Part shown: positions 1-56,939 of the stretch, piece by piece
How the letters are laid out: every line of letters begins with the position of its first letter
How positions within the stretch are numbered: the first letter of the stretch is position 1
Made by a program: the position numbers and the translations under genes
The notes under the pieces: generated by a model
The model's input: the letters and a program-made list of their open reading frames with translations, nothing else
Database searches by the model: none
Told to the model about the DNA's origin: nothing
Virus record (IMG/VR): IMGVR_UViG_3300038312_000327
Location: 1 to 64,000 of that record
Length of the DNA: 64,000 nucleotides
Reading direction: 5' to 3' (one strand)
From: a virus
Taxonomy: Duplodnaviria > Caudoviricetes

Positions 1-75
1 GGGCGTTTAGCTCAGCTGGTTCAGAGCATCTGCCTTACAAGCAGAGGGTCGGCGGTTCGAATCCGTCAACGCCCA
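1..75 (+). tRNA. trnV: tRNA-Val (anticodon TAC), prophage integration target
   Basis: Acceptor stem GGGCGTT/AACGCCC, D arm, anticodon arm CTGCC-TTACAA-GCAG, T loop GGTTCGAATCC. Confidence 0.97.
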
Positions 76-76
76 C
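33..76 (+). repeat. attL core (3' half of tRNA-Val)
   Basis: CCTTACAAGCAGAGGGTCGGCGGTTCGAATCCGTCAACGCCCAC identical to 56896-56939. Confidence 0.97.
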
Positions 77-112
77 CGAGTTAAAAAGCTGTTTTACAGC
101 AAACTAAAACAT

Positions 113-150
113 AAAGCGAGTTGGTACAATTCTGTATCACTCGCTTTTTT
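113..150 (+). terminator. Intrinsic terminator between tRNA and integrase
   Basis: AAAGCGAG-T-TGGTACA-attc-TGTATCA-CTCGCTTT hairpin ending in a T run. Confidence 0.8.
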
Positions 151-284: not shown

Positions 285-1508
285 ATGGCAACTTTCAAAC
301 CGGTTGTGTTTACAACCAAAAATCATATTAAATCAGACGGCACTACGAATTTAAAAATACGTGTTTATCACAATAAACAATCGCAGTACATCCCTACCCC
401 ATATTATATTGAACCCGGATTTATGAATCCTGATGGGAATATCTCATCATTTTATCCTGATGCCGATATGCTAAATTACGAATTAGGGGAGATCATGCAA
501 TTACACAAAAAGAATTTCCTTCAATTGGGATCATCCCGAACATTTAAAATGTCATGTTCTGAACTCAAGGAAATACTTGTGAGCATGTCAGAGCAAAATA
601 CGGAATTTATCGATTTCGTAGATTTTTCGAATAAAGTAATAAATAACACAGTAAAAGAAAAAACAGCTTCATGGTACCGGTGTTCTCTTGAATCATTCAA
701 GAAATTTTGGAAAAACAACAAAATAAATGCCTGTGATATCACTGCAAAAAAGATGCGGGAGTATAAAGACTATTTGGAGAAAAATGGCATGCAGCCGGGG
801 GGCATCAATAACTACATGAGAGGTATTCGTTCCTTATTCAATAAATGCAAGGATCATCACAATAAAGATGATTATGATATTATCCTTATTCCGAATAAGC
901 CATTTAAAAATGTGGATATTCCTGAATACCGTAGGAGAAGGAAGAACATACCTATTGAAACGGTAAAACAGATCAGAGACGGGAATTTTGATACAGAGCG
1001 GGAGAATTTCGCCAAAGATATGTTCATGATAATGTTCTACATGATGGGAATCAATGTGAATGATTTGTTTAATCTAAAACCTCCTATTTATGGCAGGATC
1101 GAATATGAACGTTCAAAAACAAACACCCGGGACAATATCTATAAGTTCCCATTATCTATTAAAATCGAACCGGAATTAAAGGTTTTGATTGACAATTACA
1201 GTAGCGATGGATTCCTTTCCAATATAAAAACAAAGTACACTTGTTCTTATAATTTCATGAAAGCAATCAACATCGGGCTAAAGAGGATCAGCGAAGAATT
1301 GAACATACCAAAAATCACCACCAACTGGGCGCGTCACTCATGGGCCAGTATCGCCCGGAACAAAGCCAAAGTTCCCAAAGCCGATGTGGATTTTTGTCTT
1401 GGCCACGTGAATAATGACTACAAGATGGCGGATATTTATATAGATATTGATTATGGCATCTGCGATGATGCAAATCGCAAGGTTCTCAATATGTTACTTG
1501 ATAAATAA
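285..1508 (+). CDS. int: Tyrosine integrase (Bacteroidota type with arm-binding and SAM-like domains)
   Basis: GINVNDL, ARHSWAS, LGH and IY catalytic motifs; adjacent to attL. Confidence 0.95.
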   Translation: MATFKPVVFTTKNHIKSDGTTNLKIRVYHNKQSQYIPTPYYIEPGFMNPDGNISSFYPDADMLNYELGEIMQLHKKNFLQLGSSRTFKMSCSELKEILVSMSEQNTEFIDFVDFSNKVINNTVKEKTASWYRCSLESFKKFWKNNKINACDITAKKMREYKDYLEKNGMQPGGINNYMRGIRSLFNKCKDHHNKDDYDIILIPNKPFKNVDIPEYRRRRKNIPIETVKQIRDGNFDTERENFAKDMFMIMFYMMGINVNDLFNLKPPIYGRIEYERSKTNTRDNIYKFPLSIKIEPELKVLIDNYSSDGFLSNIKTKYTCSYNFMKAINIGLKRISEELNIPKITTNWARHSWASIARNKAKVPKADVDFCLGHVNNDYKMADIYIDIDYGICDDANRKVLNMLLDK

Positions 1509-1577: not shown

Positions 1578-1608
1578 TTTGGTGATTAAAAAATAACCCG
1601 TATATTTG
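1578..1608 (+). promoter_or_regulatory. Bacteroidota sigma-A promoter of the rightward operon
   Basis: TTTG(1578-1581)-N19-TATATTTG(1601-1608), exact consensus. Confidence 0.8.
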
Positions 1609-1622
1609 CACCCATTAAAGCG

Positions 1623-1660
1623 AGTTGGATTTCAAACGAAAGTTTGGGATTCAACTTTTT
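1623..1660 (+). terminator. Leader terminator/attenuator just after the promoter
   Basis: 15-bp stem with 3 G-U pairs (AGTTGGATTTCAAAC-gaaa-GTTTGGGATTCAACT) followed by TTTT. Confidence 0.75.
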
Positions 1661-1732
1661 GTGTTTATATACCTACCCTTAAACTTTCCGCTTAACACCC
1701 TCTAAATCAAACCGGGCACTTGAAAAAGTGTC

Positions 1733-4342
1733 ATGCAAAATCAAAAAACATACGACGAATTTTTAAAGTCAAAAATCAAAGTTTCTGAGAATTTCGGGTT
1801 CAATCTCGACATAGACGATATCAATCCGAACTTGAAACCGCACAACAAGCTGATGGTAAAATGGCTTGTCGAAGGGGGCCGGCGCGCGTGTTTTGCATCT
1901 TTTGGGCTGCATAAGACAGTTACCCAGCTAGAGGCTGTGCGTTGCACAATGGAGAAGGCATCACTTCCGTTAGGCCTTATTGTCTGCCCTCTCAATATCA
2001 AACAAGAATTCGTACAGGATTCAATCAACATTCTTGGCTGGGAGAAAACCCCTAAATTCATTCGCCGGGCAAATGAAATGTCCGGAGATGGTATCTATCT
2101 AACCAATTATGAAAGTATCCGGGATGGCCGCCTTGATCCCCGGATATTCGACGTTGCAAGTCTGGATGAGGCTTCCGTATTACGCGGATTTGGAGGATCA
2201 AAGACATTCCGCGAATTCATGCGGTTGTTTACCGGTGATGCCGGCCCTATGCAGATGAGACGTGGAGCCGACAATATCAAATACCGTTTTGTTGCAACGG
2301 CAACACCATCTCCGAACGATTATATTGAACTACTCGCTTATGCCGATTTTCTCGGGATTATGGATATCTCTCAGGCAAAAACAAGATTTTTCAAACGTGA
2401 TAGCACAAAGGCAGATAAATTGACACTTCATGCACATAAAGAGGAAGAGTTTTGGCTATGGGTGTCATCGTGGGCACTGTTTGTAAACAAACCGTCTGAT
2501 ATCACCGGTAACCCTGCTGATGATGAGGGATATATTTTGCCTGAATTGGATTTACGCTGGCACGAAATACCAACCGATCACGTAGAGATAACAGTAGAGA
2601 AAAACGGGCAGCTTCAAATGTTCAAAACGGAAGCATTGGGACTTGAACAATCGGCAAAAGAAAAACGGTTGAGCCTTGATAGCCGAATAAAGAAAATGCT
2701 CGAATTACGGGCAGAAGATCCAGCTGCACATCGAATAATCTGGCATGATCTGGAAGATGAACGACATGTTATCGATAAGGCTATACCTGGAATCACTTCC
2801 ATATACGGATCACAGGACTATGAGAAACGTGAAAATAACATCCTTGATTTCTCATACGGTCGTGTTCCAGAGTTATCAGCAAAACCTGTGATCGCTGGTT
2901 CAGGTTGTAACTTTCAAAGGTACTGCAGTTGGGCCATATATCTCGGCATCGGTTACAAATTCAATGACTTCATACAATCCATCCATCGCCTGCAGCGATT
3001 CTTGCAGAAAAATACGGTGCGTGTGGACCTCATCTACACCGAAACGGAAAAAAACGTCCGCAAATCCCTCGAACGCAAATGGCAAAATCACAAAAAACTA
3101 ATCAACAAGATGACAGAAATAATAAGAAAGTACGGTTTATCCCATGCGGAAATGGCAAAGCATCTGGCCAGAAAAATGGGTGTTGAAAGAGTGGAGATTA
3201 AAGGAGACAACTTCACCCTTGTAAACAACGACAATGTGCCGGAGTTGAATGATACCAAACGGTATCCGGATAATTCGGTAGGCCTTGTCCTCACTTCGAT
3301 ACCATTTTCCTCTCAATATGAGTACTCACCTAATTATTCTGATTTCGGGCACTCAGAGAGCAACGAAGAGTTTTTTCAGCAGATGGATTATCTAACCCCT
3401 AACCTTTTCCGGGTACTGCAACCTGGCCGGATTGCGGCCATCCACGTAAAAGATCGTATCGTCCCGATGGGATTATCGAAGGCTGGTGTTCAAACGGTTT
3501 ACCCCTTTCATATAGACACATACAATCATTTCGTTAAACATGGTTTTGCCTACATGGGGATGAAAACAATCGTTACCGACGTGGTACGTGAGAATAATCA
3601 GACCTATCGGCTTGGATGGACTGAGCAATGTAAAGACGGCACCAAAATGGGAGTCGGAATGCCTGAATATCTTCTTTATTTCCGTAAACCACAAACAGAC
3701 CGTGCAAATGCTTACGCCGATATCCCTGTTGAGAAGGACAAAAAAGAATGGGACAAACTTAATGAAGAATGGATTAACCCGAATGGATATTCACGTGCAC
3801 GTTGGCAATTCGATGCAGCCGGGTACACTCGAAGTAATGGCAATCGAGGAATCACTCCTGAAGAACTGGCCGCAATGGACCACAAACAGATCTTCCAGTG
3901 GTTCAAAAACTATACTTTGAATGAAATCTGGGATTTTGAATTTGTGGTGAAAGTAGCTGAAACATTGGAAATGCAGGGTAAACTTCCTTCCGGTTTCATG
4001 CTGTTACAACCGCAAAGCTGGACGGATGAGGTGTGGACGGATGTAGTCCGCATGAGGACGCTCAATGGTTCACAATGGAGTAAGGGTAAAGAAATGCATC
4101 TCTGTCCAATGCAGTTCGATATTGCCGACCGTGTAATTGAACAATTGAGCAACCCCGGAGAGACGGTATTGGATCCTTTCGGTGGATTAATGACGGTGCC
4201 ATACCGCGCGGTCCTAAAAGGCCGGAAAGGTATCGGTATCGAGTTGAGTAAACCTTATTTTATCGACGGAGCTGCATATTGCAAGGGCGCTGAAAGGAAT
4301 ATCAAGATGCCATCTTTATTTGACACGCTAGAAGCTATATAA
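1733..4342 (+). CDS. SNF2-like helicase domain fused to N4/N6 DNA methyltransferase
   Basis: FGLHKT, LDEAS, QSIHRLQR in the N-terminal part; TSIPF and VLDPFGG in the C-terminal part. Confidence 0.85.
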   Translation: MQNQKTYDEFLKSKIKVSENFGFNLDIDDINPNLKPHNKLMVKWLVEGGRRACFASFGLHKTVTQLEAVRCTMEKASLPLGLIVCPLNIKQEFVQDSINILGWEKTPKFIRRANEMSGDGIYLTNYESIRDGRLDPRIFDVASLDEASVLRGFGGSKTFREFMRLFTGDAGPMQMRRGADNIKYRFVATATPSPNDYIELLAYADFLGIMDISQAKTRFFKRDSTKADKLTLHAHKEEEFWLWVSSWALFVNKPSDITGNPADDEGYILPELDLRWHEIPTDHVEITVEKNGQLQMFKTEALGLEQSAKEKRLSLDSRIKKMLELRAEDPAAHRIIWHDLEDERHVIDKAIPGITSIYGSQDYEKRENNILDFSYGRVPELSAKPVIAGSGCNFQRYCSWAIYLGIGYKFNDFIQSIHRLQRFLQKNTVRVDLIYTETEKNVRKSLERKWQNHKKLINKMTEIIRKYGLSHAEMAKHLARKMGVERVEIKGDNFTLVNNDNVPELNDTKRYPDNSVGLVLTSIPFSSQYEYSPNYSDFGHSESNEEFFQQMDYLTPNLFRVLQPGRIAAIHVKDRIVPMGLSKAGVQTVYPFHIDTYNHFVKHGFAYMGMKTIVTDVVRENNQTYRLGWTEQCKDGTKMGVGMPEYLLYFRKPQTDRANAYADIPVEKDKKEWDKLNEEWINPNGYSRARWQFDAAGYTRSNGNRGITPEELAAMDHKQIFQWFKNYTLNEIWDFEFVVKVAETLEMQGKLPSGFMLLQPQSWTDEVWTDVVRMRTLNGSQWSKGKEMHLCPMQFDIADRVIEQLSNPGETVLDPFGGLMTVPYRAVLKGRKGIGIELSKPYFIDGAAYCKGAERNIKMPSLFDTLEAI

Positions 4343-4373
4343 AATTCAATAACTATTTAAAACAATTGCAACA

Positions 4374-13749: not shown

Positions 13750-13834
13750 TTCGACTTAGTTTTAAATAGTTATTAATCAATAATGCAAATATAGCTAAAA
13801 ACCTCACCCCCTTTATATTTTACAATAAAAATAT

Positions 13835-26324: not shown

Positions 26325-26401
26325 GAAAGTATATAGTTAAGAATAATACAAACATACTAAATAAAAAGATACCTCCTTTTATATTTTACCATAAAAAGGC
26401 C

Positions 26402-30465: not shown

Positions 30466-31304
30466 ATCCGGCCCCCTTTCCGCAATTGGTGAAGAAAAGC
30501 TCGACCTTTCTCGGTCCAAACCATCGATTGTTGCGTTTCAACATTACCTGTATGACGATTAACATATCTTGAAACACGCATATCTGTATAGTCCTTATCC
30601 TGATATTTTGAATAAAGAAACCACTGACCAGATTGAAAAAATTGAATCCCCGCTTCTTTAAGTTTCTTGTTTAAGGTTTTTGCACTCAAACCAAAATCTT
30701 TTGCTATTTGTGTTGTAGTGAATGTAGATGTTGATTGCAAAACCTCGTCAGTATATTCAGCTTTTGGAACTAAAACTTTGATTTCTTCTTTCTGAATTTC
30801 ATTTTCTCCCTGAAGTATCTGGATTGCTTGTTTGTGTCTCTCCAAAGTTCTTTGAGCAACTTGTAATGCACGAGCCATTATTAAATCTGAAGATTCAAAA
30901 TCAAGAGCAACATTACCGGTTGTCATTAATATTTTTATCTGGTCATTTGTCCAGATAGCGAATGCCGGGGATAGCCAGCGAGCAAACTCGATGGCAACGT
31001 CTTCATGGAACCATGTACCTGGATTTGCACCACCTGCCTGAGTTTTAACTAATTTCTCAAAGTGTGATTTTCTCACTTTGCTTAATTCTTCAAGAAATGT
31101 TTTAGATGTGGGCAATCTTAACCAGTCAACTGGTCGTTTCCCAAATGTTTTTGCCATCTGTGTGGCATTTACCATAACATCGTCACCTTTAGAAAAAGTA
31201 ACTTTTGAGCCTTCATAGGTTAAAACAATGCTCGTTTCGTGAGCGGACGTACTTCGACTGTTACTATTGTTCGCAATCGTCGCAATGTTTGTGTTGTTAA
31301 GCAT
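30462..31304 (-). CDS. KilA-N + ANT/KilAC phage antirepressor-like protein
   Basis: VNATQMAK..GTWFHEDVAIEFARWLSP; C-terminal TTTQIAKDFG..WTEKGR. Confidence 0.9.
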   Translation of the reverse strand: MLNNTNIATIANNSNSRSTSAHETSIVLTYEGSKVTFSKGDDVMVNATQMAKTFGKRPVDWLRLPTSKTFLEELSKVRKSHFEKLVKTQAGGANPGTWFHEDVAIEFARWLSPAFAIWTNDQIKILMTTGNVALDFESSDLIMARALQVAQRTLERHKQAIQILQGENEIQKEEIKVLVPKAEYTDEVLQSTSTFTTTQIAKDFGLSAKTLNKKLKEAGIQFFQSGQWFLYSKYQDKDYTDMRVSRYVNRHTGNVETQQSMVWTEKGRAFLHQLRKGGRI

Positions 31305-31356
31305 TTACACAAAATTTTAATAAGTAACGATTTTGAGAAGTGTGGAAATAAAAAGA

Positions 31357-31434
31357 GCGATCCTGCACTTCCCGTTGCTTAACACCTCAAGGGCTGCGGG
31401 GCCATTAAGCCTCCACACGGGGTTACAGAATCGC
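31357..31434 (-). ncRNA. Candidate C4/CI-like antisense RNA (78 nt)
   Basis: 11-bp closing stem, inner CCCGU/ACGGG stem, one hairpin, and an unpaired loop complementary to upstream and downstream boxes. Confidence 0.5.
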
Positions 31435-31542
31435 AATTAAATTTTGACGTAATAACTATTTAAAACAAAAACAGCCCGCCAATATGGTGAGCCGAACGCC
31501 TTGCAATTCTAATATTCTCACCCTTGAGTATGTTAAGCGTTA

Positions 31543-31573
31543 CAAATATCAGAATATTTTTTTAATCTACAAA
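31543..31573 (-). promoter_or_regulatory. Promoter of the antirepressor cassette
   Basis: TTTG-N19-GATATTTG on the minus strand (one mismatch to consensus). Confidence 0.6.
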
Positions 31574-32264: not shown

Positions 32265-34186
32265 ATCGAGTAGGAGGAAAACGAAGTAGTTTTCTTCCTA
32301 CTTTCGTTTTCCGACCTCTCACACCACCGTACGTACGGTTCTCGTATACGGCGGTTCCTTAACATTTCACTCTAACCGTTTTATAATAATCCGAGAAGAA
32401 AACGTAACCGGCTTTTCTTAAACGCTCGTCAGTAACTGTTCGGCTAAGGATAAAACTATTGGCTACATGCCAATAGCCCTTTCTGGTATTTGCCCACTCA
32501 TATGCCTTGTATCTGTTGATACCCAGCTTAACAAGATTAGCTACCTTGGTTCTGATCCGTTTCCATTGTTTCCATATCACCATACGTAGCCTTCGACGCA
32601 ACCAGGCATCCGTTGTTGTGAGTAACGTTTTAATGTCTGCCAGTTTGAAGTACTGCACCCAACCTGTTATATACTGGTTTAGTGCTGTCTTCCTGCACTC
32701 ATTCCCCCATCCGTTGCTTCGGGATGTAAGTTCTCTAATTCGAGCTTTCATCTTTTCCACACTTTTGGAGTGAACCCTCAGCCTGCATTCTCCCTTGTAT
32801 CGGTAAAAACTATAGCCAAGGAATTGGATATCCCTGATGTAGGCAACTTTCGTTTTGTTACGATTGACTTTCAGGAAGAGTTTCTTCTCAATGAACGAGA
32901 TAATGCTCTCCATCACTCTTTCGGCACTTCGCCTACTCTTGCACAGTATTACCAGATCATCCGCATAGCGAACGAACTTGTGTCCCCGTTTTTCGAGTTC
33001 CCTGTCCAGCTCACCCAGAAGGATATTTCCCAAAAGAGGACTTAATGGTCCTCCTTGCGGAACTCCCTCATGGCTCTCTTCGAAACAGACTCCATCTTTC
33101 ACTCCTGCATTGAGATACTTATGTATAAGTGAAACCACTCTCCCGTCCTTGATAGTACGGGATAAGACCTCTATCAGTTTGTTATGATGTACGGTATCGA
33201 AGAAACGCTCCAGATCCATATCTACGGCGTAGATGTAACCCTCGTTGATATACTGTTGACATTTTCTGAGGGCTCCGTGTGTTGAGCGTCTGGGACGGAA
33301 CCCATAGCTATGGTCACTGAATTCAGGTTCATAGACCTGAGACAGCTTCTGTGCAATGCCCTGCTGGATAACCCGATCTACTACTGTGGGGATACCCAGC
33401 TGGCGCTGCTTCCCGTCTTCTTTGGGGATGTATACCCTTCGTGTCGGATTGGGGCGATACTTGCCCCCCAGAATGGACCCGATCAATACATCCTTGTTCC
33501 CGACAAGATAATCTTTCAATGATTCAACCTCCATCTTGTCTATACCTGCTGCGCCATGGTTGCTCTTTACCCGTTTGTAGGCAGCGTTAAGGTTGGAAGG
33601 TGAAAGGATGTCTTCCAGCAATCCATTCTCTTTACGGTGTTCATGTCCGGTGAGGTTGTTTTCAGTTATCCATAGGAAAGTCTGCCCTGTCGCATGGCTT
33701 TCGGATGCCGTCCTATTATTCTGCGCTACAGGTCTCTGATATATAGAGATTTTCTGCTTTCGTCCTTTCATAACGGTAACTTTCATTGACTGCTCGACCA
33801 TTAAGGTTCAGCCCTTCCCATATCCGGTCGTGATGTGGTACTATGGCTTCTGCTGACTTCTCACGATGAACTTGTTTTGACCATGCTTCATACTCCGTTT
33901 CCGCATGTTCGTGAGACCTCCCGCGGTAAGGCAGTTAACTTTCATTCCATGTCCCCGCCATATTTACACCCCGACGTCCGTGTAATCTTTGGACTTTGAC
34001 TTGTTTTGCAGTCTCGTCCCGACGGGTATGCCTGATATGATTCGTGTCCCTCGGGGCGGAACTTTGCCTTAAGCTTCCTTCAGATTCCGCTTCGCAACGG
34101 ACACCCTTGCCCTCGGCTAATGGTTGGCGATCACAAACCCCCATAGTGGACTTTCACCACCAAGTTAACTGCCATGCACGGCACAC
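32265..34186 (-). mobile_element. Class IIC group II intron
   Basis: 5' GTGTG at 34186 right after a stem-loop plus T run; domain V AACCGCCGTATACGAGAACCGTACGTACGGTGGTGTGAGAGG with CGC triad; domain VI ending ACTCGAT at 32265. Confidence 0.9.
32359..33801 (-). CDS. ltrA: Group II intron reverse transcriptase/maturase, no endonuclease domain (start possibly 33771)
   Basis: RQLGIPTVVDR, GVPQGGPLSPLL, VRYADD, domain X. Confidence 0.95.
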   Translation of the reverse strand: MVEQSMKVTVMKGRKQKISIYQRPVAQNNRTASESHATGQTFLWITENNLTGHEHRKENGLLEDILSPSNLNAAYKRVKSNHGAAGIDKMEVESLKDYLVGNKDVLIGSILGGKYRPNPTRRVYIPKEDGKQRQLGIPTVVDRVIQQGIAQKLSQVYEPEFSDHSYGFRPRRSTHGALRKCQQYINEGYIYAVDMDLERFFDTVHHNKLIEVLSRTIKDGRVVSLIHKYLNAGVKDGVCFEESHEGVPQGGPLSPLLGNILLGELDRELEKRGHKFVRYADDLVILCKSRRSAERVMESIISFIEKKLFLKVNRNKTKVAYIRDIQFLGYSFYRYKGECRLRVHSKSVEKMKARIRELTSRSNGWGNECRKTALNQYITGWVQYFKLADIKTLLTTTDAWLRRRLRMVIWKQWKRIRTKVANLVKLGINRYKAYEWANTRKGYWHVANSFILSRTVTDERLRKAGYVFFSDYYKTVRVKC

Positions 34187-34521: not shown

Positions 34522-34573
34522 ATGTATTTCCGAAAAACACACTTCTCTTATATTTTAAATCAAAAACATTTTT

Positions 34574-39343: not shown

Positions 39344-39411
39344 TTCTCTCTTTGTCATTTTTGATTGGGCCGGGCGTTATTGTCCGGCCTTTTATATTTT
39401 AAAAGAAAAGT

Positions 39412-39939
39412 ATGATTAAAGAATTTGTACAACTCGAAACGAACACAATAACTGAACAGCCGCTAAAAATACCATTCGATTTCAGTAACAGGGAAAGCCT
39501 GCCGTCGGGCAAGGATCCAGGAGATTGTATTGTGATTTCACCGATAACGGTACGTACGTGGTTTAAACTGAAACCTCTTTTGCTGTCGATCAACAAATCT
39601 GATTTTGATAAGATCGTAGCTAAAGAAGATCCACTTCCGGAAGCTGAGTTAACCGGGATCATTTCAAAGTATGATGATCTTCTAATTGATATTCTCTGTA
39701 TCGGTATCCATAACAAAAAGAGTGATCCCCCGGCATGGTTTAGGGAAGTACTGAAAGACAATTGCACCTGGAAAGACATCTACATCCTGTTGAATGCGAT
39801 TCTCTTTCGTATAGGTTATAACCCTTTTTGCAAATCTATCACGACCGTTCAGAGCGTGAGCCCGATGGACGAAGCGGAGATAATAGCCGCTCGAAGAAAT
39901 CTCGAAAGCTGGATGAAGACAGACCAGTCAGCGGAGTAA
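39412..39939 (+). CDS. Tail assembly chaperone (G-like)
   Basis: Follows the tube gene; contains C CCT TTT slippery heptamer. Confidence 0.65.
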   Translation: MIKEFVQLETNTITEQPLKIPFDFSNRESLPSGKDPGDCIVISPITVRTWFKLKPLLLSINKSDFDKIVAKEDPLPEAELTGIISKYDDLLIDILCIGIHNKKSDPPAWFREVLKDNCTWKDIYILLNAILFRIGYNPFCKSITTVQSVSPMDEAEIIAARRNLESWMKTDQSAE

Positions 39940-50825: not shown

Positions 50826-52055
50826 TTATTTTGCCTTTACATCGTCCACATATTCCACGAAAGCCGACTGGATGAATTCGCTATCCTTGTTCGCTTTCTT
50901 TTCACAGAAGGTGATCATCTTCTTGTGTATCTTTTCTAGTTCATCAATTGGCAATTTTGCTCCTTCGCCTAAAAACCACATCTGATATATGTCAAGAAAG
51001 CCTTTGGCGTTATTCACGATGATTTTCTTCGTAACCTTTGCTTCCGGAATAGATGTCGGGATTGCAGCTGCAGTTGCACCGAATGATGCAAAGATGCCCG
51101 CTTGGGCCGCCTGCGCTTCAAGTCGTAATTTCTCTTCTGCCTCGCGTTTTTTCTGCTCTTCTTCGCGTTTTTTCTTTTCTTCTTCCTCGCGAAGTTTTGC
51201 AACTTCTTGTGCACGTGCGGCAGCTTCAGAATCTTGCTTTCTAAGCTCTTCAATACGTTCCAGTTCCTTTTTCTTCGAAGCAAGACGGATAACAAAATCA
51301 TCTTTCATCGACTGGATATCATTGCGGAATTTTGTTTGATATTCTATGATGAGGCCCGGGACCACTTCTCGCTTTATAGCGGTGATCGCTTTTTCATCGA
51401 GATAAACGAATCGGAATTCATCCTTGAATCCTTTAAAATGTTCAGTTGCATCGTAAACTGTTGAGAATTCCGCAATCTTTTTTGAATCGTTTTCGAAGTT
51501 TTCAAGTGTTAATCCTGAAAACAGATCAGAGAGTTCAACAGCTTTACCTTCAAAATGCTTTGAGTAGTATTTCTGTAGCGAAAGAGAAAGGTCGGCCCGA
51601 TACTCGCTTTTTTCGTTTTCTTCAGCCTGGCGTTTGCGTTCCGCTTCCTCGCGTGCTTTCTGCTCTGCGAGTTTCTTTGCAGCATAATTGTTCCGGAAAA
51701 CTTGCAGTCGTGCAGGTATGGAACTTGCATTCGTGGGGTTTATTTCATTTTCCAACGTGGTGAACTCTTTGGCCACACGTGTAAGCAATTGCGTTAGCGG
51801 AGAGCGACGTTCATTCATCTTCTTGACAGTAACCTTGGCCTTATCTATGAAGTCCGATACCTTCGCATCCAGATCATCACTAGTAATAATACCTCCTGCA
51901 CCCTCAATCGTGTCAAGGAGTGTTTTTCCGGCATCGTTGCAACGTACAACTGAATTTTGATTTTTTGACAGCATGTCCGGAGCTGTCTGAATGATGCTTG
52001 TAAATTCTTCTACCTTAATGGGAAGATTTGCTGTTTGTGTTGTTTCTATTGTCAT
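50826..52055 (-). CDS. Coiled-coil hypothetical protein
   Basis: 409 aa, E/K/R-rich helices. Confidence 0.75.
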   Translation of the reverse strand: MTIETTQTANLPIKVEEFTSIIQTAPDMLSKNQNSVVRCNDAGKTLLDTIEGAGGIITSDDLDAKVSDFIDKAKVTVKKMNERRSPLTQLLTRVAKEFTTLENEINPTNASSIPARLQVFRNNYAAKKLAEQKAREEAERKRQAEENEKSEYRADLSLSLQKYYSKHFEGKAVELSDLFSGLTLENFENDSKKIAEFSTVYDATEHFKGFKDEFRFVYLDEKAITAIKREVVPGLIIEYQTKFRNDIQSMKDDFVIRLASKKKELERIEELRKQDSEAAARAQEVAKLREEEEKKKREEEQKKREAEEKLRLEAQAAQAGIFASFGATAAAIPTSIPEAKVTKKIIVNNAKGFLDIYQMWFLGEGAKLPIDELEKIHKKMITFCEKKANKDSEFIQSAFVEYVDDVKAK

Positions 52056-52075
52056 TTTATGAAAGTTTTAAATAG

Positions 52076-52357
52076 TTATTTTCTTAATGCTTCGTCTATA
52101 ACTTTTTCTGCCAAATTGAGGCTATGATTGATGTGATCGTTAATACTGCCGCGTTGTGTCGTATTCCAATAATCAACGATAGATATTAATGCTTCGAGCA
52201 TTCTGGGTGCTGTTGCTATGAGTTGAGCATTTGCTTTTGCTTCATCGTAACTCCACCCTGATACACTGTTAGTTATTTTACATTGATACGGCATTGAAAC
52301 TATTGAAGTTCCACCTGAAACAACCCATTCACCTTTTGTTCCTTTAAATCTTTCCAT
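52076..52357 (-). CDS. Hypothetical protein
   Basis: Start re-placed (MERFKGTKGEW); ANAQLIATAP motif. Confidence 0.65.
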   Translation of the reverse strand: MERFKGTKGEWVVSGGTSIVSMPYQCKITNSVSGWSYDEAKANAQLIATAPRMLEALISIVDYWNTTQRGSINDHINHSLNLAEKVIDEALRK

Positions 52358-52358
52358 C

Positions 52359-53303
52359 TCAAAATCCCTCCTCTTCGTCTGATTGAGAAACCATAACAGG
52401 AGTTGCTTCCTGAACTTCTTCGGGTTCATCAAAACCGTTTTCAACAACTTCAGCTTCAGCATCAACCACACCATAATCGATTTCAGGTTCAAGCTCTTCT
52501 ATTGATTGCATGTTCGTAAACTTGCCGACACGTACTTTAGGATAGGCATCGAAAGCATGCTTGATCATCTTATTTTCGAGGAAACCAGGATCGATCTGCC
52601 CGTCATTCGATGAATAGAGCTCATTTGCTTTGCCTTCTACACGTTTTCTTGCATTGTTGTCCCAATAGCTGTTTGATCGTGATGAAAACCCTTTCAGGCG
52701 CTCAATATCACCTTCAAGAAGCCACTGATAGTCCTCTGATCCATCATTGCGGACAATGCGGATGAAAGCACCTATGATCTTGTTTGATTTACGGGGGATG
52801 GCAGCTGAGTATGTGATTTTCTTCACACCTCTGTCAAGGTCAATCGAGAAAGTGTCACCTTCATACACGACAACTGGATTATCAGCGTACTTGATTTGGC
52901 CGGCCCTCATTCTCATTACTAATTCACCGTAACCGGTAACCGAAACAGATGCTCTCTTTTCATAGATATCCTTTCCGTATTGGTCCTTGTGGCCAGTTTT
53001 CGAATTGCGGGGGATCATGTAGCAGTGTGGTCTGCCGGTAGGGTCCAATGAGAGGCCATTGACAGCCATATCAAGGAAGCAACCATAAAGGCTCATCTTG
53101 CTACATTCCTGGAGTGTTGGGTTATCCTGCAATACTTTCTGGAAGTTAAATACTTCCTTGTGGTACATTTGTGTACCCTTGTCGGTACCATGAATCGAAT
53201 TGTACATCTGGATGAACTTCTGTTCAACCATTTTACTTTCCACAATTTGAGTTGCTTCAAGCTTGTTTAATTCGTCGACTTTGATTTGAATTGCTGTGCT
53301 CAT
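52359..53303 (-). CDS. recT: RecT-family single-strand annealing protein
   Basis: SLYGCFLDMAVNGLSLDP..CYMIP..VTGYGE..VVYEGD. Confidence 0.88.
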   Translation of the reverse strand: MSTAIQIKVDELNKLEATQIVESKMVEQKFIQMYNSIHGTDKGTQMYHKEVFNFQKVLQDNPTLQECSKMSLYGCFLDMAVNGLSLDPTGRPHCYMIPRNSKTGHKDQYGKDIYEKRASVSVTGYGELVMRMRAGQIKYADNPVVVYEGDTFSIDLDRGVKKITYSAAIPRKSNKIIGAFIRIVRNDGSEDYQWLLEGDIERLKGFSSRSNSYWDNNARKRVEGKANELYSSNDGQIDPGFLENKMIKHAFDAYPKVRVGKFTNMQSIEELEPEIDYGVVDAEAEVVENGFDEPEEVQEATPVMVSQSDEEEGF

Positions 53304-53315
53304 TTTGATTTGTCT

Positions 53316-53618
53316 TTAAATAGTTATAAGTGATTCTTTAAGTTGCTCTAGTTTCGTTTCAGCGGTTTTTAATTCCGCATTTACTTCTGTGTAGTATTCT
53401 TCAGTTTCGTAAGGCCTTGTTAATTTGTAATTCAAGATCCACAACTGACGTAATAACTCCACGATTTCATTATCATCAATTTTGCTGAGTACTATGCGGA
53501 ATTGATTTTTTTGAGATTCTGCTTTTTTTTGATTCTGCTTGTATCCATAATCATCCATCTGCCAATACCAGTCGAAAGAGGAGATTATAGTTAGTGCTTC
53601 TTTAATTAATTCCTCCAT
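53316..53618 (-). CDS. Hypothetical protein
   Basis: Early operon. Confidence 0.6.
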   Translation of the reverse strand: MEELIKEALTIISSFDWYWQMDDYGYKQNQKKAESQKNQFRIVLSKIDDNEIVELLRQLWILNYKLTRPYETEEYYTEVNAELKTAETKLEQLKESLITI

Positions 53619-53748: not shown

Positions 53749-53767
53749 TTTGCCGTCTTTTAAATAG

Positions 53768-54055
53768 TTATCTGAAAATCTTGTTTGCCGGAATGATATT
53801 CTGAATATCGAGCATCCGGCTTGCAGTCTCGAGTTCAGTACGTTTGAAATATACTTTGCCACGTTCTTTATTTCCTGTCGGGTAACCTACGATCCAGCGT
53901 TTGTGTCTCCAGTCTTTGATTAATCTGCTGCCGTATTGTTTTTTGGCTTGTGATTCTGTTACAATTTCGTGGGTGATTCCTAAATCGTTAAGAGTGTTGT
54001 GCACTCCGATCTCTATTGCTTTACTGATAATTGTTTCGATTACTCTGTCTTCCAT
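53768..54055 (-). CDS. Small DNA-binding protein, possible excisionase
   Basis: Short helix-turn pattern followed by KVYFKRTEL; early position. Confidence 0.5.
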   Translation of the reverse strand: MEDRVIETIISKAIEIGVHNTLNDLGITHEIVTESQAKKQYGSRLIKDWRHKRWIVGYPTGNKERGKVYFKRTELETASRMLDIQNIIPANKIFR

Positions 54056-54082: not shown

Positions 54083-54127
54083 TAAAGCGAGTTGGATTTT
54101 GTATGCTTAACACCTCGACAACGCTTT
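54083..54127 (-). ncRNA. Candidate regulatory RNA element in the early transcript
   Basis: AAAGCG/CGCUUU hairpin carrying complements of boxes at 111-124, 1616-1632 and 1690-1702. Confidence 0.4.
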
Positions 54128-54159
54128 GCCGGGCTGTTGTTTAATTATTGAATTTTAAG

Positions 54160-54327
54160 CTAATCGGGTAATTCTTCGTAAGTGAAACGAACAGATTTGC
54201 AGTTGAGTGTAGATTTGTAAATTTGCACTCTCATTGCTTCCAAGTCGGTTGTTGTACGCCTGTCGTTACTAACTTTACGATCTCCGTTTATCAGTTCGCA
54301 GATGATTTTTGTAATTACTAATTTCAT
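54160..54327 (-). CDS. Hypothetical protein (55 aa)
   Basis: Start re-placed just after the upstream stop. Confidence 0.5.
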   Translation of the reverse strand: MKLVITKIICELINGDRKVSNDRRTTTDLEAMRVQIYKSTLNCKSVRFTYEELPD

Positions 54328-54331
54328 TCTG

Positions 54332-54883
54332 TCAATGGTTGAAAAGGTTATTGTTCTTTGCGTATAAGTAAAATTCAGCGAGAGAATGTGTTCCGGTACG
54401 CTTGAAAGCATTGCGCTTGTGTGTACGTACAGTTTCGGTAGACAAGCACATATCATCGGCGATTTGCACTGTAGATTTATTCTTGTAGTAATTGCTCATC
54501 ACCTCAATTTCACGTTCCGAAAGATTCGAGTTGAATCTAGGTCTACAGATAATTCCTTCATGTGGGCACTCTCCACGTAACGGGCATTCAACTTCTTCAA
54601 AATTGAAATATCCGAATTGATCGATATCAACTACACTGTCAAAGCGGCCCCAGTTGCAGCGGATAAACCGGCTCACGATTGAATATTCGAAGTGTGGAAT
54701 GTTAAAGCGTTTTTTATCGAAATGCTGTGATAGCCTTGCAAGTGTATCGGGATGGAAATCACCGATTTTTTGCATCATTGCGGAAATGAAATTACGGTCG
54801 TTCTCCTTTAGTTCCCGAACACCTTTTTCATCATGAATCATAATCCCTCCATTCGGGGTACGGTAGAATTCGATGTTTTTCAT
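54332..54883 (-). CDS. LuxR-type HTH regulator with Cys-rich N-terminal domain
   Basis: LSEREIEV..IADDMCLSTETVRTHKRNAFKR; CPLRGEC. Confidence 0.85.
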   Translation of the reverse strand: MKNIEFYRTPNGGIMIHDEKGVRELKENDRNFISAMMQKIGDFHPDTLARLSQHFDKKRFNIPHFEYSIVSRFIRCNWGRFDSVVDIDQFGYFNFEEVECPLRGECPHEGIICRPRFNSNLSEREIEVMSNYYKNKSTVQIADDMCLSTETVRTHKRNAFKRTGTHSLAEFYLYAKNNNLFNH

Positions 54884-55155: not shown

Positions 55156-55210
55156 CTTTGTAATGTTTAAAATAGTTATACTTCGTGTTCCCTGTTTTAA
55201 ATAGTTATTG

Positions 55211-55263
55211 AAAATGAGGGTGGAAATTCATAGATTGGCGTCGCTGAAGCCACCCTCAATTTT
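55211..55263 (-). promoter_or_regulatory. Long hairpin in the early-operon leader (possible attenuator)
   Basis: GAGGGTGG/CCACCCTC stem with inner TTCA/TGAA, followed by ATTTT. Confidence 0.45.
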
Positions 55264-55321: not shown

Positions 55322-55353
55322 CAAAAATATGAACTTATTTCATATTATGCAAA
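55322..55353 (-). promoter_or_regulatory. Early leftward promoter
   Basis: TTTG-N20-TATTTTTG, exact consensus on the minus strand. Confidence 0.8.
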
Positions 55354-55396: not shown

Positions 55397-56116
55397 ATGT
55401 CTATAAATCAAGAACTAAAAAAGATCATATCTGAAATAAAATACAATTTCGAGATAAATCAAGCTGAGATAGCTGATAAACTAGAGGTTACGCCTACTTA
55501 TTTATCAGATATGATTAACGGTAGAGTTCCCTTTTCAGACAGTATAAAGATCAAAATATATGAAGTTTTCAAAATAGATATCAGAGAAAATACGAACAAT
55601 CTTCTTATTGACGAATTAAACTACGATTTGATCGATACCGAAGAAAAATACAAAAAAGCTATTGCGGCTGGTTTAAAGATGTTACCTGAAGTAGATTTTA
55701 TATTTTCAGCTGGTCAAAAGGCATTGACAGCTAATACAGATACAACGGTTAGATTTTGGCACTTGCCAGATTGTGAGGATTGTGAAGCAATTGCAAGAAT
55801 GGCTGGAAATTCAATGATGCCGACCTTACCTCCTGGATGTCAGTTGGCATTAAAAAGATATGGATATGACATTACCAGGCCAAACACTATCGCATTTGGT
55901 AATATGTACGGAATAGTTGTAGAGGACCCATCGACGGGCCTATGGCATGGACATATTAAAGTGTTGAGACGTCATAGAGATCCTGAATTGGCAAAGAAGT
56001 ACTGGATTGCTCATTCGATAAATACAGCTGAGTATGATGATTTCGATATTGATTTAACCTTGGTGCGCGGATTGTGGGTTGTAAAACAGCATGTGGTTAC
56101 AAACGTATTATTATAG
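55397..56116 (+). CDS. CI/LexA-like repressor (HTH + S24 peptidase-like domain)
   Basis: QAEIADKLEVTPTYLSDM HTH; GNSMMP. Confidence 0.85.
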   Translation: MSINQELKKIISEIKYNFEINQAEIADKLEVTPTYLSDMINGRVPFSDSIKIKIYEVFKIDIRENTNNLLIDELNYDLIDTEEKYKKAIAAGLKMLPEVDFIFSAGQKALTANTDTTVRFWHLPDCEDCEAIARMAGNSMMPTLPPGCQLALKRYGYDITRPNTIAFGNMYGIVVEDPSTGLWHGHIKVLRRHRDPELAKKYWIAHSINTAEYDDFDIDLTLVRGLWVVKQHVVTNVLL

Positions 56117-56683: not shown

Positions 56684-56822
56684 TAAGGATAAGATCATCG
56701 CATTACAGCGCCAAAAGATTGAGGATTTAAGTATAAAAGTGAACGCTTTGGAACAGGAGGTCGCCCTACTCCATCATGAAATAAAACAGCAAAAAAAGGC
56801 GAAAAAATCGCCCACTCTTTGA
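56670..56822 (+). CDS. 50-aa coiled-coil protein (not in ORF track)
   Basis: MDQIDKDKIIALQRQKIEDL.. overlapping the previous stop. Confidence 0.45.
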   Translation: MDQIDKDKIIALQRQKIEDLSIKVNALEQEVALLHHEIKQQKKAKKSPTL

Positions 56823-56895
56823 AATATCTTATAAATAAAAAACCAATATCGCATAAATGGCTATAATGCAACTTGTTGCAAGGAAACAAAACACT

Positions 56896-56939
56896 CCTTA
56901 CAAGCAGAGGGTCGGCGGTTCGAATCCGTCAACGCCCAC
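56896..56939 (+). repeat. attR core
   Basis: Identical to 33-76. Confidence 0.97.

Follow-up and report, generated by a model that had tools for sequence, protein, structure and literature searches.

Matched sequence boxes in a terminated leader and in the early operon of a Bacteroidales prophage family: candidates for RNA pairing in trans

Two sites in opposite operons of a tRNA-Val-integrated prophage share a series of short sequence boxes, and it is close to certain that the two sites are linked by selection. Site A is in the leader of the rightward operon, at an intrinsic terminator just downstream of a promoter, and site B is in a gap of the leftward early operon. The match between A and B within a genome is 12 to 17 nucleotides long, is on the same strand, and is found across five lineages that have different boxes, such that the link appears to have outlived complete turnover of the box sequence. 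We consider it probable that the boxes join the early mRNA and the rightward leaders by RNA pairing. The reading that we prefer, with a probability of roughly 0.4, is that the boxes are two halves of a trans-acting sense/antisense RNA pair, through which the early RNA of this phage would cause antitermination. From the sequences, the hairpins, the strand of B, the conservation and the covariation across lineages, we infer the pairing, its direction and its sign.

The prophage and its box-bearing sites

The window, meaning the whole 64,000-nucleotide stretch of DNA that was analysed, is part of a 75.8-kb virus record and carries a prophage of ~57 kb integrated at a tRNA-Val gene (1-77, plus strand). 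The 3' part of this tRNA (33-76, the last 44 nucleotides) is the attL core, and is repeated at 56896-56939 as attR. A tyrosine integrase gene, int (285-1508, plus strand), whose product has Arm-DNA-bind_5 and Phage_int_SAM_5 domains, is followed by an N6/N4 DNA methylase gene (1733-4342, plus strand) that heads the rightward operon. Next in this operon are genes for DnaN, PcfK/PcfJ, an HNH protein and the small and large terminase subunits, and then structural genes. The leftward early block runs from 55155 to 41957 and includes, in order, genes for a small HTH protein and a GerE/LuxR-type regulator (54332-54883, minus strand; PHROG 10300), a 98-amino-acid ORF, a gap of 104 nucleotides that contains site B, a gene for a 95-amino-acid protein, and genes for RecT, a PDDEXK nuclease and an SNF2 helicase. 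The early promoter has its -7 box at 55322-55329 on the minus strand, with a -33 TTTG at a spacing of 20 nucleotides, and is divergent from a CI-like HTH gene (55397-56116, rightward on the plus strand). Full promoters of the Bacteroidetes type number six in the window, and include this early promoter (55329) and the promoter of site A, P_A (1601).

P_A (1578-1608, plus strand) consists of a -33 TTTG (1578-1581), 19 nucleotides and a -7 element TATATTTG (1601-1608), and is conserved 3' of int in the integrase relatives examined. A previous sequence-only reading of this DNA reported a consensus promoter followed immediately by a terminator, and we agree, although the hairpin is now placed at 1622-1657 with 16 base pairs instead of at 1623-1660 with 15. 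A T-run follows the hairpin. Site A (1616-1668, plus strand) comprises box 1 (1616-1632), at the likely 5' end of the transcript, together with the terminator and its T-run. Six nucleotides of box 1 are unpaired and the other 11 are in the 5' arm of the terminator, so the 5' toehold and the arm coverage that were earlier proposed are both present in the window. The terminator hairpin has several G.U pairs in the plus sense, and its fold in the window has a predicted energy of -18.7 kcal/mol. The terminator loop, 3' arm, T-run and ~25 additional nucleotides separate box 1 from the distal part of the leader (1690-1735, plus strand), which contains box 2 (1690-1702), box 3 (1712-1717) and a hairpin (1714-1732). 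This hairpin begins with box 3; its GAAA loop and its position next to the methylase ATG at 1733 were also recognised earlier. A promoter scan of the window detected no further promoter before the methylase gene in the rightward operon.

Site B (54083-54134, minus strand) lies in the 104-nucleotide gap of the early operon. Given in plus-strand letters, its boxes are almost contiguous: box 1 is at 54083-54099, box 2 at 54105-54116, and the rest of the site (54117-54134) contains hairpin H (54117-54130) and box 3 (54129-54134). The 17-nucleotide match reported earlier between 1616-1632 and 54083-54099 is exact, and the 75.8-kb record has no third copy of the full 17-mer. The second reported match is also present, with one base missing from box 2 at B, and box 3 is CCGGGC at both sites. 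All three boxes occur in the same order at A and B, and A corresponds to B with a terminator inserted between boxes 1 and 2, a layout that holds in every lineage compared.

Among 31 distinct sequences of hairpin H, the loop is nearly invariant and the stem covaries freely. Its 11 internal G.U pairs, as counted by program, are present only in the minus-strand RNA sense, and most of the six positions scored as internal A.C in that sense are bulged A residues by our reading of the rows. Because the G.U pairs occur only in the minus sense, B is most simply an element of the early mRNA and the complement of leader boxes 1 to 3, which upholds the earlier proposal that a minus-strand RNA across B is complementary to the leader. 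The senses in which the respective hairpins have G.U pairs thus indicate that A is a plus-strand RNA element and B a minus-strand one. An interaction between hairpin H and the box 1 complement of the same B RNA was considered and rejected; it is possible in the lineage of the window (lineage I) and, by eye, is not kept in lineage II.

Directly downstream of B is the conserved gene for the 95-amino-acid protein (53768-54055, minus strand), and B is 25 to 60 nucleotides before the start codon in every lineage examined. The protein has no Pfam, PHROG or PDB sequence match and its AlphaFold model is poor (pLDDT 62); that it is an excisionase is only guessed. On the other side of B, the 98-amino-acid ORF (54160-54456, minus strand) overlaps the end of the GerE-type gene by 125 nucleotides in another frame and has no homologue or family. 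Should this ORF prove not to be a true gene, as is possible, the untranslated stretch around site B would exceed 104 nucleotides. A full -33/-7 promoter match at 54193-54225 (plus strand) lies inside the ORF and is aimed antisense across the early regulators toward the CI-like gene, in a P_RE-like position, but it is not conserved in the closest relative.

The coordinates in the sequence-only reading were right, and its inventory was incomplete, lacking box 3, a copy of boxes 2 and 3 at 31376-31395 that is discussed below, and a third copy of box 1. The latter consists of the first 13 to 14 nucleotides of the box (111-124) and belongs to site C (112-150, plus strand), between the tRNA and int. 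At site C, box 1 (112-124) is the 5' arm of an intrinsic terminator, in which 116-128 pairs with 133-144 with one bulge and a T-run follows at 145-150 (fold -18.4 kcal/mol). Sites A, B and C all carry the box in plus-strand letters; A and C are on the 5' side of intrinsic terminators, and B is in a minus-strand operon. Relatives also have the site C layout, with box 1 unchanged and a varying 3' arm. An integrase arm site at C was rejected, since both att arms are flanked by another repeat. The word TCTTTGAA forms a tandem pair between site C and int (202-219), and a tandem copy near int is also found in relatives. A 15-nucleotide match to the first TCTTTGAA copy is at 56816-56830, ~70 bp to the left of the attR core. 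The TCTTTGAA repeats are candidate arm-type sites of the integrase, and one copy can also be read as a -7 promoter box for int.

Conservation of the sites in five lineages

Relatives were found in Proteiniphilum, Paludibacter, Prolixibacteraceae, Gaoshiqia and Draconibacterium genomes. An Rfam scan of the window at gathering thresholds and a permissive scan of both sites returned nothing at A, B or C, and the GenBank phage collection contained no relative of site A or B. Scans of viral contigs with the exact 17-mer and with a gapped pattern gave mostly chance matches, true relatives being only L009, L091, L099, L135/L163, L177 and L199. A degenerate box pattern was too noisy on whole genomes, and its only useful result was a pair of sites in Draconibacterium (G012). 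Seven public sequencing runs gave weak matches, all of them in assembled contigs that are probably DNA.

The closest relative, a Proteiniphilum provirus (G001/G002), has A and B ~50 kb apart, with compensatory substitutions at the top of the A stem. Its site A has neither box 2 nor box 3, and so the bipartite complementarity that was claimed earlier is true of boxes 1 and 2 in the window but is not universal. The full box occurs in the Proteiniphilum genome only at the two prophage sites, and is therefore not a general host motif. Boxes 1 and 2 are kept at both A and B in Gaoshiqia (G006), where box 3 is also clear, and in a Porphyromonadaceae MAG (G005, also L264). In one sub-lineage box 2 is changed at both A and B, and some relatives have a second, degenerate copy of box 1 at B. 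Box 1 of A and box 1 of B differ at three positions in Draconibacterium G012, all of them G.U-compatible, and in the hairpin region of this genome a lineage-specific change is common to both sites; these observations favour pairing. The terminator 3' arms of C and A vary in sequence and in register around an invariant box 1, which is therefore constrained beyond the need to form a hairpin.

On the contigs behind L023 (G011), L249 and L264, sites B, C and A are within ~4 kb of one another, which puts the lysogeny module between A and B once the phage is circular. The distance between A and B is 52 kb in the prophage and 4.4 kb in the circle, and this short spacing, at the two ends of one lysogeny module, explains part of their co-inheritance. 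The extra spacing between boxes 1 and 2 at A relative to B varies from 36 to 53 nucleotides (insert lengths were determined by eye), on which ground a DNA-phasing signal was rejected.

More distant relatives, with integrases at 52-59% identity, were examined at 13 individual loci and by scanning the leaders of the entire set. These phages have, 3' of int, a TTTG / TAnnTTTG promoter, a terminator within ~50 nucleotides and a hairpin at the first start codon, and the leader sequences of the integrase relatives form five types. In complete proviruses of the four further types, the A leader opens with a segment that is found again on the same strand ~51 kb away. This second copy marks site B, which in these proviruses lies in a gap that has the GerE-type gene on one side and the 95-amino-acid gene homologue on the other, and is continued by blocks that at A are located past the terminator. 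Box 1 is identical between A and B at 17 of 17 positions in lineage I (the window, with boxes 2 and 3 as further matches), 14 of 15 in lineage II (G015, two further blocks), 11 of 12 in lineage III (G019, four further blocks), 13 of 13 in lineage IV (G018, three further blocks) and 15 of 15 in lineage V (G016, with a 12-mer and more).

Phages of type V carry four box copies in one orientation, which are located after the tRNA, at A, at a site D that is 5.8 kb downstream, and at B. Site D is a second full promoter-box-terminator-box module (L356:7346-7547 and L327:8716-8883) and heads another rightward gene cluster. By our own reading of the type V sequence, the start codon falls within a hairpin whose 5' arm is box 3. 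In one type V phage, box 1 has a central A.C mismatch, which counts against pairing. All five full-length relatives that were compared have a promoter-proximal terminator before the operon that in the window holds replication and packaging genes.

RNA pairing and alternative explanations

Under the antitermination reading, rightward RNAs (the P_A leader, and a tRNA-Val trailer that extends into int) would carry the boxes in sense, and the leftward early-operon RNA, whose promoter is divergent from the CI-like gene, would carry the box complement before the 95-amino-acid gene. In a lysogen, P_A would be active and its transcript would end at the terminator ~45 nucleotides in, and the terminase-containing rightward operon would consequently be off. 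Upon induction, early RNA would build up, and its B segment would pair with the single-stranded 5' end of the emerging leader, then invade the 5' arm of the terminator, allowing RNA polymerase to read through. Pairing might then proceed to boxes 2 and 3, beside the hairpin that ends at the methylase start codon. Similarly, the box at site C could permit tRNA-driven transcription into int.

Antitermination fits lineage I well, and would supply the terminase-containing operon with a way past its terminator. The block shared between A and B overlaps the terminator stem by 10-16 nucleotides in lineage I genomes, and also includes an unpaired 5' toehold. A check of cofold energies, which the sequence-only reading had suggested, gave -64.2 kcal/mol for the predicted dimer of the A leader and the minus-strand B RNA, versus -46.4 kcal/mol for the separate folds; the dimer is better by 17.8 kcal/mol and displaces the terminator. 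For the first 26 nucleotides of the leader, no partner in the window other than their own antisense strand is better than minus-strand B. However, the overlap of the shared block with the stem is only 0-7 nucleotides in lineages III, IV and V, three of the five, where invasion would hardly weaken the terminator, and terminator invasion is therefore not a general mechanism of the family. Thus, of the invasion model proposed earlier, the geometry and the dimer energy stand in lineage I, but the model does not extend to lineages III-V. A further point against an antitermination role is that RNA polymerase reaches boxes 2 and 3 only once termination has been decided, too late for them to affect it.

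The opposite outcome of the same pairing is that short, terminated RNAs bearing box 1 silence the early mRNA at B. Such RNAs would originate at the P_A leader, at the 3' trailer of tRNA-Val and at the extra module that some relatives have, and they would repress the 95-amino-acid gene, and perhaps genes beyond it, in the lysogen, as an RNA layer of immunity. We regard this explanation as possible but doubtful. The sequence-only reading had offered a leader RNA acting as an antisense inhibitor as its own alternative, and that alternative is about as likely as terminator invasion. Box 1 at the 5' end of the transcript, with a terminator hairpin after it, is how small RNA genes are usually organised, and in lineages III-V, where box 1 is mostly outside the stem and would be a free seed, silencing fits better. 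There are several box-bearing sources and one complementary site, the location of B a short distance before a start codon suits a target, and integration would be required for the host tRNA promoter to transcribe the C copy. A precedent exists in StxS, the terminated leader RNA of the Shiga-toxin phage late promoter (PMC7547250). However, boxes 2 and 3 lie past the terminator and would be absent from the short RNA, yet they are kept as well as box 1. Moreover, 11 of the 17 nucleotides of box 1 in the window are buried in the -18.7 kcal/mol hairpin, and silencing leaves unexplained how the rightward operon passes the terminator. Antitermination and silencing may also operate together as a mutual switch.

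A broader synthesis of the two, which we consider speculative and on the whole unlikely, is a protein-free, "address-coded" RNA switch between lysis and lysogeny in a wide family of Bacteroidales prophages. In this scheme, a segment of the early mRNA would act as a natural small transcription-activating RNA (STAR) on the insulator between the tRNA and int, on the rightward leader and on the second module of some phages, and would then pair toward the start-codon hairpin. The early operon would be silenced by the short terminated leaders together with a host-tRNA trailer that is produced only in the integrated state, and the lineage-specific box sequence would set the specificity of immunity.

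Alternatively, a phage protein might read the boxes, such as a Q-like factor, an excisionase-regulator resembling Cox or Apl, or an RNA-binding antiterminator, with B serving, for example, as a site of autoregulation. This explanation also seems unlikely to us, and slightly more so than silencing. Box 1 is at about +1 to +17 of P_A, which is a typical position for an operator or for loading of a factor, and one box copy is ~40 bp from the att core. A protein and its sites would be expected to covary across lineages just as much. In ten genomes, A and B show 5 differences that are G.U-compatible, 7 that are incompatible and 18 transversions. The covariation of the boxes that was earlier proposed as a check is seen in that A matches B in five lineages, but there is no excess of G.U-compatible differences, and the test gave pairing no support. 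The G.U-compatibility test is neutral, and does not separate RNA pairing from a protein reader. The second degenerate box 1 at B in some relatives also counts in favour of a protein. Pfam and PHROG scans of 37 ORFs revealed no N-, Q- or NusG-like protein, as expected from the earlier suggestion that the switch works without an N/Q-type protein, but several small early proteins belong to no known family, and these preclude that conclusion and could include a reader.

Other observations are harder to reconcile with a protein. A DNA site would not need to be on the 5' side of a terminator, yet it is so placed at C, at A and at site D of type V, and at B the transcribed strand of the operon is the wrong one for an RNA-binding protein to recognise the box. 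The similarity between A and B extends over ~45 nucleotides in three blocks whose spacing differs between the sites by 36-53 nucleotides, which is awkward for a single complex. Box 1 is not palindromic, and no boxes are present in the CI/early promoter region. The GerE-type regulator has a recognition helix that is nearly identical in lineages I and III, despite their different boxes.

A less probable explanation, to which we give little credence, is that B is a rightward leader module of the A kind that has lost its terminator. In this case, a weak, activator-dependent promoter on the plus strand would be read antisense to the early regulators and into the CI-like gene, in the manner of lambda P_RE, and the boxes would be cis elements common to all rightward leaders. 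This would account for the single DNA orientation of all copies and for the extra full promoter-box-terminator module in relatives, and near-consensus -7 boxes do precede B in the window and in type V relatives. However, the -7 box before B is not conserved and has no -33 element, its distance to box 1 is unlike that at A, and the G.U pairs of hairpin H are confined to the minus sense.

Finally, an absence of function, with the similarity arising by chance or as a leftover of duplication, is very improbable: although an exact 17-mer direct repeat is by itself not significant in an AT-rich 64-kb window (29% of Markov-simulated windows have one, and 9 of 100 shuffles had two hits at up to three mismatches), the link is real in view of the third copy of box 1, the presence of boxes 2 and 3 in the same order, the retention of both sites and their layout in relatives from distant hosts, and the agreement of A with B within genomes for five different box sequences.

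Related systems and other elements of the prophage

The P4 CI RNA and P1 c4 RNA are the closest natural systems, and synthetic STARs are the closest in geometry. In P4 immunity, seqB of the CI RNA has the targets seqA and seqC, and in P1 and P7 the c4 RNA has a2/b2 targets; pairing leads to termination or to a block of translation, and the regulator and its targets are in one operon. The prophage sites resemble these systems in that short complementary RNA boxes at several sites would control a temperate phage, that the boxes vary between related phages and would set specificity, and that the outcome is tied to transcription termination. Boxes that vary between phages and are matched within each one were found here in five lineages. 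In contrast to P4 and P1, the partners here are in opposite operons that are far apart in the prophage and closer in the circle, and the box is on the 5' side of a terminator, such that pairing should relieve termination. Sites A and B do not have the arrangement of a small RNA derived from its own operon's leader with flanking targets, and Rfam detected no C4 or IsrK match.

A STAR target consists of a promoter, an unpaired stretch and an intrinsic terminator, and the activator is complementary to the unpaired stretch and the 5' half of the stem (PMC5648800). This is exactly the geometry of A and minus-strand B in lineages I and II, and an intrinsic terminator is indeed present between P_A and the methylase gene with no second promoter after it. 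Unlike STARs, which are engineered, the candidate activator in the prophage is a segment of a long mRNA that also matches two boxes past the terminator, and its overlap with the stem is small in lineages III-V. Abortive transcripts of phage T7 act in trans on the terminator T-phi by hybridising to its 5' half, such that downstream phage genes are expressed (PMC2952870). These transcripts are by-products of initiation by T7 RNA polymerase and are 5-6 nucleotides long, whereas the prophage has a dedicated, conserved box of 12-17 nucleotides in a regulated operon.

Late control in lambdoid phages uses a constitutive promoter PR', the terminator tR' and the protein Q, and the terminated leader StxS is itself regulatory (PMC7547250). 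A promoter-proximal terminator gates a lytic operon in both cases, but no Q homologue was found here, and the gate in the prophage contains a box that is matched in the early operon. In Tn916, the end terminator T1 shields the element from host read-through, and the cis-acting antiterminator RNA canT works after activation (PMC11658703). The insulator logic of site C is similar to that of T1. However, B is on the opposite strand and in another operon from the terminators, and could only act in trans. Both HK022 put and canT are cis elements in the same transcript, in sense and upstream of the terminators; in contrast, B is antisense within its own operon, and A and C are located right at the terminators, without conserved upstream structure.

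In the literature searched, we found no description of the present box and terminator layout, in agreement with the sequence-only reading, which did not recognise a described system. To our knowledge, gene control in temperate Bacteroidales phages has been little studied. If the boxes work as RNA, they would be the natural equivalent of engineered transcription-activating RNAs, with co-evolving specificities, and they could provide an additional RNA layer of phage immunity and a means by which the phage could tell that it is integrated. A close relative resides in a cultured lysogen, Proteiniphilum acetatigenes DSM 18083 (prophage on NZ_KB905702), and the five natural box "addresses" are a ready-made set for swaps.

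The antirepressor leader of the same prophage (31295-31545, minus strand) is nearer to the P4 and P1 layout than are sites A and B. It contains the copy of boxes 2 and 3 at 31376-31395 (minus strand), which has the same plus-strand letters as B and pairs in cis with a sense copy at 31519-31538 (minus strand) at the 5' end of the leader. This leader folds far better than shuffled sequence (z -4.9), and a word resembling box 2 overlaps the antirepressor start codon. Overall, the element looks like a switch in the style of P1 c4 or P4, whose seed is in common with site B.

Three other elements of the prophage were observed. The motif AATAACTATTTAAAAC occurs ~8-10 nucleotides before the start codons of int, dnaN, recT, the early HTH gene and other genes, and is invariably in the mRNA sense. 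Its copies are at 260-277, 4348-4365 and 31451-31468 on the plus strand and at 13757-13775, 52053-52079, 53301-53327, 53759-53782 and 55193-55212 on the minus strand. A group II intron resides inside the prophage (32265-34101, minus strand); it matches the Rfam D1-D4 and domain V-VI models and includes an ORF for a reverse transcriptase of 480 amino acids (32359-33801). Lastly, a repeated block with the core TTATATTTTA is found upstream of structural-gene clusters, at 13796-13831, 26362-26397, 34531-34566 and 39389-39418, and is likely a phage-specific late promoter.
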